Source: a virus
Taxonomy: Duplodnaviria; Caudoviricetes
DNA: 32,788 nucleotides
Direction: 5' to 3' (one strand)
IMG/VR virus record: IMGVR_UViG_3300003369_000003
Location: 1 to 32,788 of that record
Part shown: piece by piece, positions 371-30,336 of the stretch
How the letters are laid out: every line of letters begins with the position of its first letter
Position numbering within the stretch: the first letter of the stretch is position 1
The notes under the pieces: generated by a model
Database searches by the model: none
What the model was told of the DNA's origin: nothing
Seen by the model: only the letters and a program-made list of their open reading frames with translations
Translations under genes and position numbers: made by a program

Positions 371-3300
371 TGACAAATATAATTCAGAAAGGCACAGCCA
401 GCACCGTCAGGACTACCGCTTATAGTCTGCAATATAGTGGAACTTTTATGGAGATACCGATGCTTACGGTTACCATAAAATCTCCCGCCCTTATTGCTTT
501 TGCGATAGGTGACTTCATTGTGTGGGATTATGACGGACTGACTTATACGCTTAAAGAGTTACCGCCGGTATCCAAACAATCTACTGCCAACACTTACGGT
601 GAGGCTTTTGTCTATGAGGGTGTAAAGTTCGTTTCCGCTTTGGCCGAGATTAAATATCTGGAGTTTCTTGATGTTGTACCAAGCACAGACATTACAAGCC
701 ATTTCAGCTCATTACCGACCTTCTCATTCTATGGCAATGTATTTGCCCTCATAGACCGATTGAATGCAAATTTAGGCCGTTTATATGCGAACTGGATAGT
801 GGAGGCTGCCGATGTGGAGAGCGGTGATATTTACGATGCACTATATACCGACAGGGATGTGACTATTGACTCCCCTATTAAAGTAAGAGATGCACTTGCT
901 TTGGTTTATTCGATGTGGGGATTGGGTTTCGTATATCATTACGATACGGTTACGGCAAAACACACCATAACAATTGGTGAATACGGGGCAGATACAGGCG
1001 GGTTCTCTTACGGGCAGGGCAATGGTCTGTATATGGTTGGCAAGACCATAACCAAAGAGGATTCTATCGTCACAAGGTTGAGGGCGTATGGTTCAACACG
1101 AAATATGCCTGCAAGATATTATAACACTAAGGCTATATTAGACAATAGGATATTGATACAGAATGACCCGATGTTATATCTGCCTAACCTAATGATCCCG
1201 TATACAAAGTGGGGGGAAAATCCGTACGAACCCGACCCCGAACTGGCTTATATCAACTGTAATAATGCCGACATAGAAATATTGTCAGGCGTTCCTGATA
1301 CTTCTTATGCAAAATATGGTATACGGGAGCAGAGTGTTTATTTTGACGGTACGAATAACAACAAAGAGATATTTCCTACAATAGAGGGGATTACTTCTGA
1401 CGAGATGAGAGATGCCGTAAGCGGTTATAGTGGGGCACAGCGTGAATTTTACATATCACCAGATGTAACGGCTTATCCAGACGGCACAAGGCTTGATAAA
1501 ATTAAGGTTATCGACAGCACAACCGATGATGGCGTAATAAAGACTGACAATACATACAAAGCAGAACCTGAATTTGCGGGCGATACGGATGAGGTTACTA
1601 TGACCGATAGGGTTATGACCAAAACTTTCTCCCCTATTTATTCCGCCACGCTGACAAGTGCAGGAGAGTACAAGGTTACTTTTACCGAGCAAAGCCTGAC
1701 CGCAGTCTGTACCGATTCGTTAATTTCAGATGGTGTGTTGCGGGTTTGGATAGTTAAAGACGGCAATAGGTCTTCTTTAGCTGCAACTATAACAGGAGTA
1801 GCTATAACCAATGGGTTTGAGTTTGCTTTACCCGAATTAGTCTTAACCACACAAAAGGCAAATGGCCTATTTTCAATCGAAATGGATTTGGAAGTTACTC
1901 TTTCTGATTGGCACTTAGGCGATTTAGCAACGGTAACTTGGACAAGAGAGGCAGGGAAGATAACCTACGAATTAACAAAGACCGTACCGAACAACACATT
2001 TACAATCGAACTTAAACAGATCGGATTCGACATATTCCGATTCTTACCAAGTGCAGGTCAGATTCCAATAATCTCAATGACTTCGGGTTCGTGCGCTGCA
2101 AGACAATTTAATATCACTAAGACTACCTATCTTCCTGCAACCGATTCGTGGCAACTAACTTGTGTTAGGCAGAAAGATAACTCTATTGGACAATGGTTCC
2201 CTAACAGCAATTTTAAGATTAACGCAGAAGATAGCTTCGTATTGCTCAATATCAATATGCCCGATATACTTATTGATATAGCCGAATTAAGGTTATACGA
2301 TGAGGGTTGCAAGTGGCTAAAGAAGCGTAAGGAGCAACAGTATATCTACGAACCTAAGATTGACGAGGTTTATATGGCTATTTTGGCCGCAGCAGGAACT
2401 CCCGAAATTATCAAGGAGGGGATGATGATGCCTTTGGTAGATACAGACTTAAGCGTACCAGAAGGAACTATACTTATAAATTCACTAACCGTTACAGAAA
2501 GTGAAGATTCAGTAAGAAAGTTTGAGGTGGTCTTAAGAGAAGATACCGATACGGACTTGCTTAAATATATCAACGCACAGGCCAAACAGGTCAGTTCAAG
2601 TGCGGTCAGTGGTATAACCAATGCGACTACTGCCACAACGGAACCTGCTGATCAGACAACTACGGTTACTTCATTGGGTTTCACGCCTGAAAATATAGCA
2701 AACAAGACAAGTGTGATTTCGGTTGATTCTACCGCAACACAATACCCAAATGCTAAAGCGGTTTATGATAAGGTTGCTGGTTTCGCTCTTTTGGCAGGTT
2801 CAGCAACGCAAGACTTTGCTGTTCAGAAACTCACTATGGCTACTTTGCAAATCCCAAAGACCGCACCCGCAGGAATGACTGTAAACCAATGGCATTTATC
2901 GGTGGTAGAAACTGGCTTTGCAGGTGAAGAGCCTTCAGGAGGCGGAGGTGTTACTTTATTTTCTGCTCTTTCTGATACTGCCCTAACTGCTGCTTTCCCT
3001 TATAATTCGGGAATGGTTGGTAGAGTGCCGATGATTACTGATTTAGGCAGCGGAGTTTATAAGTGGAGAGATACCCTCTTGGCGATTTCTCATATTGACG
3101 GACTTACAGCAGCAATTGCAGGTAAATTAGCCCTTCACGCAACAGCAGATGCAGTTTCAGGGCTTACTATAACAGCGGGGGCTTCTATATCCAACTCTAA
3201 TACGGGCGACCAAACTTTATCGGGATTAGGTGGGCAGGCAGCTTTAAGCGGAACGGGTTTTGTAAAAATTTCAGGTACTACAATTTCTTATGACAACACA

Positions 3301-8911: not shown

Positions 8912-9415
8912 ATGTTAAAAAATTATAAGTGGTATATTATTGTAGGATTAGTGTTTGTTGCCCTCATTATATGGCTGAACATTGCACTATACAAAATTAG
9001 AGAGTATAAGTCTAATGAAGGTAAGATTATTAGGGATACTACGATTGTAGTAAAATATGATACTATCAAAATAACCAAACCCGTGTATGTTTCGCAAAAG
9101 GTCATAGATACCCTTTTAGTGCCCATTACAGACACTTTAAGGCAGAATGATACTTTATATGTCCCGATACCTAAAACTCAAAGATACTATGCAAAAGATA
9201 GCTTATATATGGCGTGGGTGAGTGGGTACAAACCCAACTTAGATTCCATAAAGGTATTTCCAAAAACGGTGTACTCAACTATAACAAATACCATTTACCG
9301 TAAACCAACTAAAATAGGATTTGGACTTTCGGTGGGATATGGTGCATCACTTATCAATGGGCAAGCTAAAATTGCACCATCTGTTACGGTAGGACTGTTT
9401 TATCGGATTTGGTGA
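8912..9415 (+). CDS. putative spanin-like lysis protein
   Basis: N-terminal TM helix, repeated DT motifs and a C-terminal beta-hairpin ending in aromatic residues (GLFYRIW). Follows the endolysin, as is typical of Bacteroidota phages. Confidence 0.6.
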   Translation: MLKNYKWYIIVGLVFVALIIWLNIALYKIREYKSNEGKIIRDTTIVVKYDTIKITKPVYVSQKVIDTLLVPITDTLRQNDTLYVPIPKTQRYYAKDSLYMAWVSGYKPNLDSIKVFPKTVYSTITNTIYRKPTKIGFGLSVGYGASLINGQAKIAPSVTVGLFYRIW

Positions 9416-9416
9416 T

Positions 9417-9629
9417 ATGAACTGCACCTTTGAAGAATACATGGCCGATGTTTGCTCTCAGTTGGAGTGCAATAGGTCTGCCGAAGATATAAGTAAATAC
9501 GGTTGTTATACCTATACCGAGCAGACCGTAAAGGATAACTTGGATTACTTTAAAGAGTGTTTGTCGAGAAGTGAAGGTACATATAATGCCTTATTGTTTT
9601 TTAACTATTATTTGTATGATGAGCTATAA
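9417..9629 (+). CDS. hypothetical protein
   Basis: 70-aa ORF abutting the previous gene. Confidence 0.55.
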   Translation: MNCTFEEYMADVCSQLECNRSAEDISKYGCYTYTEQTVKDNLDYFKECLSRSEGTYNALLFFNYYLYDEL

Positions 9630-9634
9630 TTGCT

Positions 9635-9642
9635 TATCTTTG
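9635..9642 (+). promoter_or_regulatory. -7 promoter element for the tRNA
   Basis: TATCTTTG about 70 nt upstream of the tRNA. Confidence 0.6.
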
Positions 9643-9714
9643 CATTTGATTCTTTACCGTTGGTCTGGAACTTACAGAGGTTTCAAACGCTGAACCCGAA
9701 TCAGCGTTTACTAT

Positions 9715-9786
9715 TGCGGGGTGGCGCAGAGGCAGCGCGCTTGGTTCATGCCCAAGAGGTCGAGATTTCAAAATTCTCTCCCGCTA
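9715..9786 (+). tRNA. tRNA-Met (CAT), initiator-like, with non-canonical features
   Basis: Acceptor TGCGGGG/TCCCGCT (1:72 mismatch), D arm GCGC..GCGC, anticodon arm CTTGG-TTCATGC-CCAAG, T arm GAGAT-TTCAAAA-TTCTC (53:61 mismatch). No encoded CCA. Confidence 0.75.
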
Positions 9787-9838
9787 CAAATTAACATTTT
9801 AAAATAAATTATTATTTTGATATTAGGAATATAAAGAG

Positions 9839-9846
9839 TATCTTTG
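9839..9846 (+). promoter_or_regulatory. -7 promoter element for the HNH gene
   Basis: TATCTTTG about 20 nt upstream of ATG 9868. Confidence 0.55.
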
Positions 9847-9867
9847 TACAAAATTAATAACAAATCT

Positions 9868-10257
9868 ATGCATGAAATAATATCTATTTGTAGAGGAGGA
9901 GGATATATGTATTGTAAAACATCACCTCTACATCCAAAATCAAACTCAAATGGACTATATCCATTACATCGCGTAATGCTTGAAAACAAATTAGGTAGAT
10001 ATTTATTATCAACAGAAGTAGCTCATCACATAGATGGAAATAAATTTAATAATACTCTCGAAAATTTAATGGTGTTGTCTAATAGGGAACATGCAATACT
10101 CCATTTAAGAAAAGATGAAATGATTAATTCAATCTGTCCGTGTTGTGGTAAGGAGTTTCAAGAAAAACCATGTTACTATAAACTAAGACAAAAAAGGAAT
10201 AAATCAGGGAAAGTATTTTGTTCAAGATCTTGTGGCGTAAAACAAGACCCCTCATAA
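9868..10257 (+). CDS. HNH homing endonuclease with C-terminal Zn-binding domain
   Basis: HRVMLE..LGR.L...EVAHHIDGNKFNNTLENL....H (HNH_3-like), followed by CPCC..FCSRSC. Confidence 0.9.
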   Translation: MHEIISICRGGGYMYCKTSPLHPKSNSNGLYPLHRVMLENKLGRYLLSTEVAHHIDGNKFNNTLENLMVLSNREHAILHLRKDEMINSICPCCGKEFQEKPCYYKLRQKRNKSGKVFCSRSCGVKQDPS

Positions 10258-10291
10258 CCCATTAGTCAGAGGTTCGATTTCTTTCCCGCTA
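10251..10291 (+). pseudogene. 3' half of an initiator tRNA-Met gene (remnant)
   Basis: CTCATAA-CCC..GTC-AGAGG-TTCGATT..TCCCGCTA gives the anticodon loop, T arm and acceptor 3' strand, with no 5' half. Confidence 0.75.
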
Positions 10292-10339
10292 CTAATTAAA
10301 GAGTTATCTTATCTGCCATGTGTAGAAAAAGAAAAGATT

Positions 10340-10379: not shown

Positions 10380-11460
10380 ATTCCCACTTTTGGCTGCATT
10401 TCACTACCAAGTTTGGCGGGAAATGTCAAGTTTTTACGGGTACAAACTATCATTTTTGTAACAAATTTAATCTATTTTTGTGACAGCAGTGTCGCATATA
10501 TAGTACATTTTGGCGACAATTTTGTATTGTATACAGAACAAAACTAAGGCAATGGGATAATTCTTTCCACTAAGAGGGGTACGCAAGGATAATTTTGTCG
10601 ATTAGTAAAAACCCGCACAGCAAGTGGAAATCTTTTCAACTGGGTATGTAAAATTATACTTTTGGATATAATACCAATAAGTATAACCGCAAAAAGTCAA
10701 CTGACAGGTTGACAAATAGCTCGTGTAAGTAAATTTATAAGTTGACATTTTGCATTATTATTATTGCAGATGAAAACAGGGCAAATTCAATGATAATGTT
10801 CAATATTTATCATTGTTCAATGGCAATGAATCTTTGTTTTCACTGAACGATATGATCCGATAACACCCGATATGATTCGATAATGAGCTATAAATGCTGC
10901 ATTTCGGAAATCAAACAAATGGCACTAAATAGCATTTGCTGCCGAATTATAGAGCAACTCCACAACAGAACAATAAAGAACAAGGACAGTAGGCTACAAA
11001 TTGACACCGACTCATTCGTAATTCGCGTTACGCAAAAGGTGTAACATATTCGCAATTTTGCGGTTAAACCTCAGCTTTTTCGTTGCAATTCGTATCTGTG
11101 AAATAAGGTTAAAGCTGATAATTAGGATATAAATGGCAGCTTATGTTAAGGAAATTAACTTCCCGAACATGCTAATAAGATCATTACTAATAAAACTATT
11201 ACTAATACTCATATTGTATGCTATAGTGTACATAAACTATACTTTTTGTACAATATATCAAACATTATGCACAACTAACATTATGTCGGCAATTACCTTT
11301 TGCGTCAAGATAAACCCTAAGAATAGCCACTTATCGTGCCATGAAAGGTAATGGTTTGCTTTTGTGCGGTTAACTATACTAAGAGTGTGGTTATATGAAT
11401 TAATTTAAACTGCAAACTTTAAATAATACCCATAAGTGCGGTTTATCCCATATCTGGCAT
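10380..11460. other. non-coding array of heterogeneous palindromes and short direct repeats
   Basis: No credible gene. More than 15 different dyads or tandem motifs are packed nearly end to end (see findings). Confidence 0.6.
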
Positions 11461-11484
11461 TAAAACTTAAAGAGAGCACAAATC

Positions 11485-11511
11485 AAAAAGGCAGCCACGA
11501 TTGACTGCCTT
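11485..11511 (-). terminator. intrinsic terminator ending the leftward operon and the sRNA
   Basis: AAGGCAG..CTGCCTT stem, with an A5 run on its left (U-tract on the minus strand). Confidence 0.75.
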
Positions 11512-15645: not shown

Positions 15646-16380
15646 TTAAATCATTGCACCTTTTGGTTTGGTTTGTTCTAGGACTGGTTGTTGGTAGGTT
15701 CTTTGTTTATAGACCTTGTTGATGTTTAGTGCATTTGTATATGTCTCTCGCCAATCAATTGTTTTTGTCTTTGTGGCCTTCCTTTTTTTCCACCCCTTTT
15801 CTGTTCCCCAATATTCAATAAACGCTTTTTTTAGTGTTAAGAGAATATCTACATTTGGGTTTATCTCTTCTTTGGATAGAATAAAATCTCTGTCTGCAAT
15901 AAGTGACTTATAAGCCTCCTCTGCCTCTTGCCTGTAAATATCAAAATTCTCTTTCCATAAGATAGTTTCTTTATCCTTATCCTCTTCCTTATCTTTATCT
16001 TTATCCTTTTCCTTATCTCTTTGTATAGTCTTTGTATAGTCTATCCATAGTCTATGATTTTTTAAAAGAGTGATATAAGACTGATGTGGTTTATTTGATT
16101 TATTTTCTTCAATAAGTACACCATATTGGAAGTGGCAAAAATCGGTTATCCAAAGTTTTTTACAATTAAACCATTTTATTTTTTCACCAAAGGCATTAGA
16201 AATATCTTCACGGGTAAATTCTTCTCCTATTATAAAAGATGCAAGTTCTAAATCTTCCTCCCATACACCAACTGAATCACAATTGCAAATTAAATAAAGC
16301 CAAAACAACTTGTGTTTCGGTGATAGCTTTCTGAACCACTTATTTTGTGTCCAGATTGTTGTTTCTATAAATCTTTTCAT
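15646..16380 (-). CDS. phage replication initiator protein
   Basis: N-terminal wHTH-like region (WFRKLSPKHKLFWLYLI), DKDKDKEEDKDKE linker, internal iterons, and position upstream of DnaB. Confidence 0.75.
   Translation of the reverse strand: MKRFIETTIWTQNKWFRKLSPKHKLFWLYLICNCDSVGVWEEDLELASFIIGEEFTREDISNAFGEKIKWFNCKKLWITDFCHFQYGVLIEENKSNKPHQSYITLLKNHRLWIDYTKTIQRDKEKDKDKDKEEDKDKETILWKENFDIYRQEAEEAYKSLIADRDFILSKEEINPNVDILLTLKKAFIEYWGTEKGWKKRKATKTKTIDWRETYTNALNINKVYKQRTYQQPVLEQTKPKGAMI
16019..16056. repeat. 11-bp iteron-like repeats, putative replication origin
   Basis: CTTTGTATAGT-CTTTGTATAGT-CTATCCATAGT-CTATG inside the initiator gene, as in lambda O/ori. Confidence 0.6.
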
Positions 16381-16673
16381 AATCCAATAAATTCAAAGTA
16401 AAACATTCCCCTTATCAGCTTATACGGATATTTATTTAATACCAATTGCTTAAACTGAATCAGTTCTAAATCTGCCTTTTTTCTATTACAATCGTAACAC
16501 GAAAGGCATAAATTTCCCCTTGTTCCGTCTTTGTATTTTGAGAGTGGTTTAATATGGTCAATCTCCGTATTACTAACATCTCGATAACCCAAGATTAGTT
16601 CGCAGCCACAATAATAGCACCTTCCATGTTGTTGTGCCATTCTCTTTTTGTAAAATGATTCTGATAGCTTCAT
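16377..16673 (-). CDS. HNH endonuclease
   Basis: CYYCG...IDHIKPLSK..G...NLCLSCYDCNRKK. Likely start ATG 16673. Confidence 0.85.
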   Translation of the reverse strand: MKLSESFYKKRMAQQHGRCYYCGCELILGYRDVSNTEIDHIKPLSKYKDGTRGNLCLSCYDCNRKKADLELIQFKQLVLNKYPYKLIRGMFYFEFIGL

Positions 16674-16823
16674 AGTATCCTCATAAAACAAGAACTCCCA
16701 CAAAAACAATACTATCAGTTCCGTAGGGATAAGTTAACCCATCTGATAGTATTTGCCTCTGTGAGAGCCTATTTGTTAAATGTATTTTTTTTGTCATAAC
16801 TTATTATTTTTTCAACGGTTCTA

Positions 16824-24616: not shown

Positions 24617-25441
24617 TCATTTAAAGTATGTTTTTATCTTCTCGTCTATATCCACCATACCTGAGCAAATATATCCTTCGGACATTGTAATAGAACTATG
24701 TCCCATGTATTTAGATATAGCGTATAAATCCAGCCCTCGTAGATATAGGTTCGTAGCGAATGTCCTACGAGCTGTGTGTGAAGATACCAACAGATACTTA
24801 GGCAGTACAACATCCTTCCCACCTCTAAAAACTTTCTCTTCTTGCCGGATGTTCGCTCTAAAACACAGCCGCTTGATGATTCGATCAAAAGCGGCCGTAG
24901 TAACGGGTTTAAGCATCTTTAGTTGTTCGAGTAAGTCCTTCACTATGGGTTTTAACGGCACGGTCGCCTCAGTCTTGGTCTTAATAGACACATAGGTCAG
25001 CCTGTCACCGTGAATATTGCTCTCACTAAGTTTCTCCGCATCGGATAGGCGGCAACCTGTGAACGATTCAATCGCAAACATAGTCCTAACGTATCGTTCG
25101 GCTTTAGACTTCATTGCCACCCGTATTAGTCGCTCAAGCTCCTCTTCCGACAGATAAACCGCTGTTGAGGCCTCTTTTCTTACGTTTAAGACAGTTTCGT
25201 AGTTCTTGCAAGGTATTTTAACATCCTCGCTTGCCCGATTGAACGTGGACTTTAAAATGCTTACATAGGTACGTACGGTGTTTGCCGAAAGAGTTTCCAA
25301 CATTCCCTTCTTGATCTTGAACAGATTGGATTTGGTCAGGTCGATCCATTCGGGTTGCTTGCCGATAAAGGCTTCAATCATCGGCAATAAGAATCTATAT
25401 TGCGGATATTGTTCAGTTAGATATTCGGAAAAGGTGTGCAT
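24617..25441 (-). CDS. tyrosine recombinase/integrase
   Basis: Catalytic set TGCRLSD, KTK, HTARRTFAT, MGHSS and EGY. Likely start ATG 25441, about 274 aa. Confidence 0.9.
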   Translation of the reverse strand: MHTFSEYLTEQYPQYRFLLPMIEAFIGKQPEWIDLTKSNLFKIKKGMLETLSANTVRTYVSILKSTFNRASEDVKIPCKNYETVLNVRKEASTAVYLSEEELERLIRVAMKSKAERYVRTMFAIESFTGCRLSDAEKLSESNIHGDRLTYVSIKTKTEATVPLKPIVKDLLEQLKMLKPVTTAAFDRIIKRLCFRANIRQEEKVFRGGKDVVLPKYLLVSSHTARRTFATNLYLRGLDLYAISKYMGHSSITMSEGYICSGMVDIDEKIKTYFK

Positions 25442-25443
25442 TA

Positions 25444-26211
25444 TTAAGAGTATTGAACGGCAGATTCTCGTGCGATAAAAAAATGTATACCTTTTGAGCA
25501 CTCATTGAACCTCTCCTCGTCAAAATCTGTAACGCTTACAATTTCGCCTATTTTGTATATAAACGAAGCGTCTTGATTAGATTCAATTTGTGTAATCTCC
25601 GCCTTTGACCCGTCAATATTTTGTATATCCAAAACTTCTGCCTCCGAGCATCTGCACTTTAGGGTTGTGGCAGAACTTCGTTTAGCATTTTCCGTTACCC
25701 TTAATTTGACAATATGATTAGATGCTTTTTTCCATCCAATAAACGCCCCCTCAGTTGGGCACTGGGATAATAAAAACCCTGTTCCCTCATTATGTATTAC
25801 TTTGCTAAGGTCGGCATTGCTAAGGTTGGCATAGCGAAGGTTGGCATAGCTAAGGTCGGCATAGCGAAGGTTGGCATAGCGAAGGTTGGCATAGCTAAGG
25901 TCGGCATTGCTAAGGTTGGCATAGCTAAGGTTGGCATAGCTAAGGTTGGCATAGCTAAGGTCGGCATAGCTAAGGTTGGCATAGCGAAGGTTGGCATAGC
26001 TAAGGTCGGCATAGCGAAGGTTGGCATAGCGAAGGTTGGCAGAGCTAAGGTTGGCATAGCTAAGGTTGGCAGAGCTAAGGTTGGCAGAGCTAAGGTTGGC
26101 AGAGGCTTTTATCGCCTCTAGTAAGGTTTCCCTTTGTGAATTGTTCTCGCTTTCCCACGAAAACAGAACATTTCCGTAAATACTTTTGATTTCAATTTTA
26201 ATCTTTTTCAT
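25444..26211 (-). CDS. pentapeptide-repeat protein with C-terminal DUF5758-like domain
   Basis: About 20 A(N/D)L(S/R)x repeats followed by FIGWKK..IVKL....A.RSSA...KCRCS.A.V...ECSKGIHFF. Confidence 0.9.
   Translation of the reverse strand: MKKIKIEIKSIYGNVLFSWESENNSQRETLLEAIKASANLSSANLSSANLSYANLSSANLRYANLRYADLSYANLRYANLSYADLSYANLSYANLSYANLSNADLSYANLRYANLRYADLSYANLRYANLSNADLSKVIHNEGTGFLLSQCPTEGAFIGWKKASNHIVKLRVTENAKRSSATTLKCRCSEAEVLDIQNIDGSKAEITQIESNQDASFIYKIGEIVSVTDFDEERFNECSKGIHFFIARESAVQYS
25802..26103 (-). repeat. 15-bp tandem repeat encoding the pentapeptide units
   Basis: (TAGC[T/G]AAGGT[T/C]GGCA)n on the + strand. Confidence 0.95.
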
Positions 26212-29985: not shown

Positions 29986-30057
29986 TTTGATTAGTTTTAC
30001 TTTGTTTAAGGCAGTTTCCTGCCTTGCTCACAATTTAAGGAGTTGCAACCCTTAAAA

Positions 30058-30336
30058 CTAAATTAGCTGTCTTGCCATTAAATCAAATTTCTCACAAAAA
30101 CAGAAATATTCTTTGCCGTTTGCACTTATCTCTTGATATAGGTTATTCTCTTCAAATACCTTTAGTCTCATTTCTTTGTTGTGCAAGTTGCTATTTAGGT
30201 GCTGCATACCCATTATTACATTTACCATGTTATATACCACACTAAACGGATTTAGGTATGTAGCTTTGTCTTTGGTAAGCACATTAGTAACTGTTGTAAT
30301 CTTTTCGATTGTTGTTTGTGTTTCAATTGTTTTCAT
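30058..30336 (-). CDS. hypothetical protein
   Basis: 92-aa ORF. Confidence 0.6.
   Translation of the reverse strand: MKTIETQTTIEKITTVTNVLTKDKATYLNPFSVVYNMVNVIMGMQHLNSNLHNKEMRLKVFEENNLYQEISANGKEYFCFCEKFDLMARQLI

Follow-up and report, generated by a model that had tools for sequence, protein, structure and literature searches.

An apparently mobile, intron-less HNH cassette in place of the 5' half of a phage tRNA-Met gene

How does a phage come to carry an HNH endonuclease gene whose coding sequence ends inside the anticodon loop of a broken tRNA-Met gene, with a complete tRNA-Met upstream of it? The window analysed here, a stretch of 32,788 nt, is the whole of the virus record IMGVR_UViG_3300003369_000003 (Duplodnaviria; Caudoviricetes). 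Up to 9415 its plus strand holds tail genes, an endolysin gene and a DUF6808 gene, and beyond that point the minus strand carries replication, recombination and integrase genes; a tyrosine integrase gene lies at 24617-25501, and the phage also has a RecE-like exonuclease gene (E=6.9e-13). Nine promoters of the form TTTG-N19-21-TAnnTTTG were found on the two strands of the window, and this form points to a host among the Bacteroidota, whose -33/-7 promoter consensus and -12 numbering are described in the available part of PMC6847099. A scan of the window for sigma-70 promoters was set aside as concerning the wrong promoter type. Public runs with parts of the window came from peat and soil, two of them (X1, X2) with short, near-identical pieces of the window phage that did not cover the HNH gene. 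Elsewhere in the window, a second, unrelated HNH gene (16377-16709, minus strand; Pfam HNH, E=2.5e-8) adjoins the replication genes, and a Twister-P3 ribozyme (29993-30059, minus strand, 46.7 bits) sits directly behind a 92-aa gene. Between the two gene arms, at 10500-11500, about 1 kb without long genes holds several short direct and inverted repeats, and many small deletions were seen there in relatives.

The locus comprises the following features:

9611..9642, plus strand: resident Bacteroidota-type promoter, TTTG-20 nt-TATCTTTG, common to the empty allele
9649..10250, plus strand: putative mobile block of 602 bases, in place of a 30-base tRNA 5' half (joint 9648/10251 in X3 and X5; differently flanked copies in X4 and X6)
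9649..9714, plus strand: small-RNA-like leader of 66 bases with two to three hairpins, the last terminator-like (recurrence in other contigs, fold)
9715..9787, plus strand: complete replacement tRNA-Met(CAT) with the loop TTCATGC (ARAGORN; Rfam, 46.5 bits)
9816..9846, plus strand: HNH promoter, TTTG-19 nt-TATCTTTG (consensus match; predicted start about 9851)
9868..10257, plus strand: HNH endonuclease gene, 129 aa, with an HNH_3 nuclease domain and a four-cysteine zinc module (Pfam, homologues, predicted structure)
10251..10291, plus strand: orphan 3' half, with slight decay, of the resident initiator-type tRNA-Met (shuffles, profile, continuity with the 5' half in the empty allele)

A preliminary description of this DNA had seen a complete tRNA(CAT) upstream of an HNH gene with its own promoter, a stop codon TAA that ends the CTCATAA loop at 10251-10257, and a difference in sequence between the complete copy and the orphan half. 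All of these points were confirmed, the first by ARAGORN, Rfam and the promoter at 9816-9846; the changed loop belongs to the tRNA accompanying the HNH gene (TTCATGC, against CTCATAA in the orphan). The start of the feature, given as 9715, was moved to 9649; the block includes the leader. The central proposal of an intron-less mobile HNH cassette with its right border in the anticodon loop of the resident tRNA-Met was likewise upheld, by an empty allele and by the lack of an Rfam intron.

The empty allele was found in X3 and X5, which are the same soil sample, and joins position 9648 to 10251 through 30 other bases. In X3 it lies on a contig of 1074 bases that runs from 9169 to 9648, through the 30 bases, and then from 10251 onward. 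These bases start with CAGGG and end with GTGGG. If the two preceding bases are added, a tRNA 5' half results whose first base is 9647, the predicted transcription start of the resident promoter. The allele is one intact initiator-type tRNA-Met in which all three G-C anticodon-stem pairs are present, and its 3' half is the right flank of the block in the window. Its strand GTGGG pairs with CCCAT of the orphan at 5/5 positions (one G-T). Since the 5' half of the empty allele pairs with the orphan, the ancestral state was a single initiator-type tRNA-Met right behind the promoter.

This allele corrects one part of the preliminary description, which had expected an empty allele with the upstream 5' half joined directly to 10251. 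An allele reaching 10251 does exist in X3 and X5, but its 5' half is not the upstream 5' half of the window. The view of the upstream 5' half as original, with replacement of the 3' half alone, is therefore not supported, as the 5' half that pairs with the orphan is a different one. It is further contradicted by the occurrence in another setting (X3 record 4, X5 record 19) of a relative that spans the upstream tRNA from end to end, with 7 differences in 79 bases; its contigs come from one sample at a depth below 5, with about 50 bases of 3' flank, and do not show the absence of an HNH gene. The loop of this relative reads CTCATAC, so the copy carried in the window differs from it at loop positions 32 and 37.

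We then compared the flanks with the block. The left flanks of the window and the empty allele differ by 56 substitutions and 2 gaps in 480 bases (88% identity); low-similarity joints may stem from other organisms, but this side spans 480 bases of lysis-region genes, and the empty allele is therefore assigned to a related phage of another strain. A second filled allele lies on a 932-base contig from X4 and matches 9646-10257 with 14 differences over 612 bases (97.7% identical). Before 9646 it has a different promoter region, also found in X6, lacks the 70-aa gene and rejoins the window near 9413. Its CTCATAA is followed by another tRNA 3' half, in which the T stem is fully paired. The right border CTCATAA is identical in both filled alleles. 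Divergence is thus much lower in the block (97.7% identity with X4) than in the left flank (88% identity with the empty allele), and the simplest reading of these alignments would be a recent lateral transfer of the block, with the transcription start and the loop as its borders. These alleles were all recovered in a single study, from three samples, and the empty one in one of them (X3 = X5); the contigs measure about 1 kb and belong to relatives of the window phage rather than to the same strain. Within this scope, the block is, as judged from its junctions, a mobile and intron-less cassette with a complete tRNA-Met of its own; it appears to have taken the place of the 5' half of a phage tRNA-Met gene.

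A third allele behind the same promoter (X3 record 2, X4 record 9, X5 record 16) matches 9560-9641 and then continues into unrelated sequence, of which the 30 letters past 9641 begin like a tRNA acceptor strand.

The first part of the block, the leader, was also found behind promoter boxes in other public contigs. It matched 2 of 401 Bacteroidota genomes, at 84% and 80%. Among 400 Bacteroidales genomes plus the centre, the sole match was a distant one that had been found before. Rfam returned no family match for the leader, a sequence-pattern search found 0 loci, and GenBank phages gave no useful match for it or for the orphan 3' half. Its fold has a z of -1.68, and 1 of 20 predicted pairs is compensated among three sequences. 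The bacterial copies lie at 1495-1577 (minus strand) of L341, there behind a promoter box, and at 1501-1561 (plus strand) of L342; both loci resemble defence islands, near type I restriction, Fic and a DUF3800 pair, and have no tRNA. X3 record 3 (window 9625-9720) contains part of the promoter, the leader and the first six tRNA bases before passing into other sequence, perhaps a leader in front of another tRNA-Met.

The carried tRNA has an initiator-type acceptor and a less typical body. Bacterial initiator tRNAs are marked by an unpaired 1:72 with G2-C71, C3-G70 and A73, by three G-C anticodon-stem pairs, and by a purine 11 opposite a pyrimidine 24. The acceptor of the carried copy is of this type (T1 opposite T72, G2-C71, C3-G70, A73), but two of three G-C anticodon-stem pairs are present, with T29-A41 in place of the other, and 11:24 is C11-G24. 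Its loop is changed to T32, G37 and C38, and a T53-T61 mismatch is common to it and the X4 contig; this mismatch and the presence of only two G-C pairs suggest that it may be a poor initiator. The stem of the carried tRNA, CTTGG/CCAAG, pairs at 5/5 positions, against 3/5 for its CTTGG with the orphan of the window and 2/5 with that of X4 (counting a G-T pair). A pattern for the 5' half of the carried tRNA found one locus, which was unrelated. The anticodon arm (9734-9772) differs at 4 of 39 bases from a tRNA in X3 record 5, the ends of which look like those of a bacterial tRNA-Pro; T32 and G37 are Pro-like too.

That the orphan is a genuine tRNA 3' half was supported by several comparisons. 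The score of its alignment with the carried tRNA was reached by 1 of 200 shuffles, and a profile built from five tRNA-Met genes of other loci gave the orphan 18.7 bits, where 0 of 300 shuffled regions reached 12. Its sequence pattern retrieved 5 loci, each an intact tRNA-Met gene that lacks an HNH gene. The orphan has a G-T pair at 53-61, and compared with intact genes of this type from other phages (L333, L335) its acceptor strand lacks one base. In the empty allele the joint has a shorter side of 37 bases, which ends exactly at the position of this base and so suggests that the empty allele has it. The carried tRNA and the orphan contain a 21-nt repeat (9774-9794 and 10279-10299, 90% identity), and the end TCCCGCTAC that they share may partly reflect decay or conversion.

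The HNH gene itself is intact. Its HNH_3 domain scored 38.6 bits against a curated Pfam cut-off of 24.8 (E=8.5e-10), and it matched phrog_14913 with E=4.2e-19. All 16 columns invariant among 36 homologues are kept, including H53, H54, N66, H75 and H79, and relative to the X3 and X4 contigs 6 of 9 changed codons are silent, with no change at an invariant residue. The predicted structure has a pLDDT of 95. I-HmuI was its top match in two structure searches (Z 7.0, rmsd 3.0 over 74 residues; Foldseek E=0.13), where a Z of 7 may reflect a common fold and nothing further. Among GenBank phages the best HNH matches lay below 60% identity and none was close over the full length, and a direct scan of viral contigs with the HNH alone gave no relative. 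A look-up of protein clusters returned no names for 10 of 71 HNH homologues. With 3 of 23 branches starred, the protein tree has little resolution, and the architectures cannot be ordered on it.

In order to place the gene among its relatives, a subfamily was defined by a peptide pattern chosen without regard to tRNA. The pattern gave 13 viral loci, to which three metagenome loci were added, and 14 loci stood after duplicates were dropped (L242 = L002, L253, L254); loci from the three profile scans, which covered 12, 3 and 15 of 64 parts, are samples, among the matches listed. A second peptide pattern returned 10 loci, all on contigs already found, and 67 loci found with the endolysin had no tRNA and no further shared genes. 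HNH relatives of the window gene favour tRNA-Met genes: a complete tRNA-Met(CAT) adjoins the gene at 3/14 subfamily loci, compared with 5/227 distant HNH loci (p=0.0074; sampled loci, among the matches listed), and at a laxer threshold at 4/14 (L243, L246, L248, L250). In L084, L252 and L002 the HNH gene lies between two tRNA-Met halves with no complete copy nearby; the halves of L084 together make a full cloverleaf, and L002, a complete genome, has 0 intact tRNAs. Fragments of tRNA-Met were recognised by eye in L245, L247, L249 and L251, while L082, L083 (with a tRNA-Val) and L244, that is, 3/14 subfamily loci, showed no clear tRNA-Met part. The stop codon is the TAA of the Met loop in 2/14 subfamily loci and in 0/217 others, and a looser count of loop plus T arm was weak (2/14 vs 6/217, p=0.078), both among the matches listed. 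A crude count of a 3'-end motif (6/14 vs 29/227, among the matches listed) was not relied on for its high chance background.

The tRNA-Met that adjoins the HNH gene in L243 and L250 has an unchanged CTCATAA loop; the HNH gene of L250 is shortened by an early stop. These two loci keep the canonical loop, and recoding of the loop is therefore not a general route to immunity; likewise, several relatives without a replacement tRNA, such as L002, indicate that rescue is not required. At 1966-1994 of L002, and upstream of the HNH gene in L243, a sigma-70-like promoter precedes the gene, and its spacer contains a left-over CTCATAA loop.

What put the block there? We favour, at a probability of roughly 70%, the reading that it is a mobile, intron-less cassette which replaced the 5' half of a tRNA-Met gene, and that the HNH protein likely drives its spread by nicking or cutting the intact tRNA-Met genes of co-infecting relatives. 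Homing, and the immunity of the recoded tRNA copy, we infer from the arrangement of the locus. The loop and the 3' half stay beside the gene in both filled alleles and so would not amount to a full site; recognition would also call for the 5' side of the anticodon arm, continuous with the CTCATAA loop. After the replacement no full site would be left, with the canonical loop now following HNH coding sequence and the new 5' half preceding TTCATGC, and the carried tRNA would escape the nuclease through its changed loop. Donor-templated repair would bring in the block, with the promoter box and the loop as short homologies and probably with help from phage recombination genes such as that for the RecE-like exonuclease. 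The carried tRNA would make up for the destroyed gene, and as a consequence invasion may cost the phage little.

Passive mosaicism, in which ordinary recombination at the conserved promoter box and loop moves the block and the HNH gene is a passenger whose product cuts elsewhere or nothing, would agree with the third allele, which diverges after 9641 as if the site swaps modules often, and with the presence of the leader in other settings. However, a tie of the subfamily to tRNA-Met in unrelated phages, an identical right border in two filled alleles, and an intact, mostly silently changing gene are not expected of a passenger, and we consider this course of events unlikely. The loop change might also be an escape from host anticodon nucleases, the altered tRNA being of benefit to the phage and the HNH a helper or hitch-hiker; this is compatible with homing, but as the explanation of the locus it seems quite improbable to us. 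It is in keeping with changes at loop positions 32, 37 and 38 and at one of three G-C pairs, with a proposal that phage tRNAs dodge such nucleases by loop changes (PMC10264068, in part), and with the amplification of an anti-defence tRNA by SegB (PMC13096335, in part), yet the split loci without a replacement (L084, L252, L002) would be left unexplained.

An entry of the HNH gene into the loop of the upstream tRNA, with the supply of a new 3' half alone, is already contradicted at this locus: the upstream 5' half pairs with neither orphan, whereas the other 5' half of the empty allele does. We hold it to be very improbable here, although L084 and L252 keep the original 5' half upstream and the cassette could first have arisen in this way. 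Attachment cores are often tRNA 3' halves and as a rule of thumb adjoin the integrase gene, and the tyrosine integrase gene of the phage would suit an orphan that serves for integration into a host initiator tRNA gene. Hardly any weight can be given to this, with an integrase gene 14 kb away, a half that in the empty allele is part of an entire phage tRNA, and the loss of a base from that half. It is scarcely credible, too, that the segment is a spliced intron, of group I or another kind, in one tRNA gene. Four distant relatives (L010, L089, L092, L096) do have intron-like words after the stop, seen by eye, but at the locus itself there is no Rfam intron match, and with 80 bases between tRNA and start and 0 after the stop a ribozyme would not fit. 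The upstream gene is already complete, and the joined stem would be mismatched (3/5 pairs). A group I intron ends in G, and no G stands before the 3' part (10250 is C; the base before CAT is T).

The mobile HNH cassette that we favour has counterparts among known systems. The gene has two of the marks of a free-standing homing endonuclease: it lies outside an intron or intein, and the same site is without the gene in relatives (one sample, X3/X5). It resembles SegB of T4 and T6, which, in the portions of PMC2330249 and PMC13096335 available, is an intron-less nuclease gene among phage tRNA genes that is absent in relatives and moves with neighbouring tRNA genes. According to the same portions, SegB differs in being a GIY-YIG enzyme encoded between tRNA genes that recognises a T-arm motif of many tRNAs with no isotype preference; here, the block of a 129-aa HNH tied to tRNA-Met deletes half of the target, uses the loop as stop codon and comes with a replacement of the same anticodon. 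The group I intron in tRNA-fMet of Synechocystis PCC 6803 and its I-Ssp6803I share the target, the anticodon region of initiator tRNA genes, but that enzyme is PD-(D/E)XK and the gene is rescued by self-splicing (PMC1995217, partial text), whereas here an HNH_3 enzyme is found with no intron and the rescue would come from a second gene. The T-even mobA and mobE are alike in their HNH with a C-terminal module, in lying outside introns and in having gene-less alleles in relatives; for characterised free-standing enzymes, cleavage takes place hundreds to thousands of bases away from the gene (both from excerpts of PMC2988022), whereas the putative site of the cassette is its insertion site, as with intron-borne enzymes. 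HNH genes that adjoin tRNA genes in the arrays of mycobacteriophages, plasmids and cyanobacteria have been proposed to spread or diversify them, an association with large arrays rather than a delimited cassette for which a single gene has both an empty and a filled allele, as far as the accessible sections of PMC5966550, PMC6409571 and PMC8421152 go. The window locus adds an empty allele and a second filled allele, which fix the borders of the cassette. No cassette that deletes half of its target tRNA gene and brings a replacement with the same anticodon was found in the open-access literature searched, and none appears in the sections available of PMC12724721, PMC10448857, PMC3984707 and PMC5418858.

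Homing genes in RNA genes are usually made harmless by a self-splicing intron, and the cassette would represent another way out, in which half of the target is deleted and a recoded spare is carried along. It would also offer a concrete route for replacing phage tRNA sequences, anticodon loops above all, which bears on the differences between phage and host tRNAs. A 129-aa nuclease that recognises a conserved initiator tRNA gene may nick host copies too, either a cost or a weapon for an integrase-bearing phage. An assay of target site and immunity would have exact substrates in the empty allele and in the two filled ones, whose borders agree. We regard as rather doubtful, but worth stating, a larger possibility: that the locus is a natural home-and-rescue drive, in which an initiator-tRNA-specialised HNH would install a working, loop-recoded tRNA immune to the nuclease and perhaps to host nucleases, and would so spread a counter-defence tRNA together with a small RNA that is otherwise met in bacterial defence islands.

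In the more distant HNH relatives L010, L089, L092 and L096, the stop codon is followed by words resembling a group I intron end, P7-P9 (by eye; no Rfam intron match) and then by a tRNA 3' part, and L010 has a skipping-rope RNA at 2921-3001. Another group of HNH genes lies between two tRNA-Leu genes (L014, L020, L030, L046, L100, L102, L115), and in L150 the gene lies between two tRNA-Arg genes; in these loci the stop codon is often inside the downstream tRNA. Judging from such arrangements, isotype-specific HNH lineages may be common.
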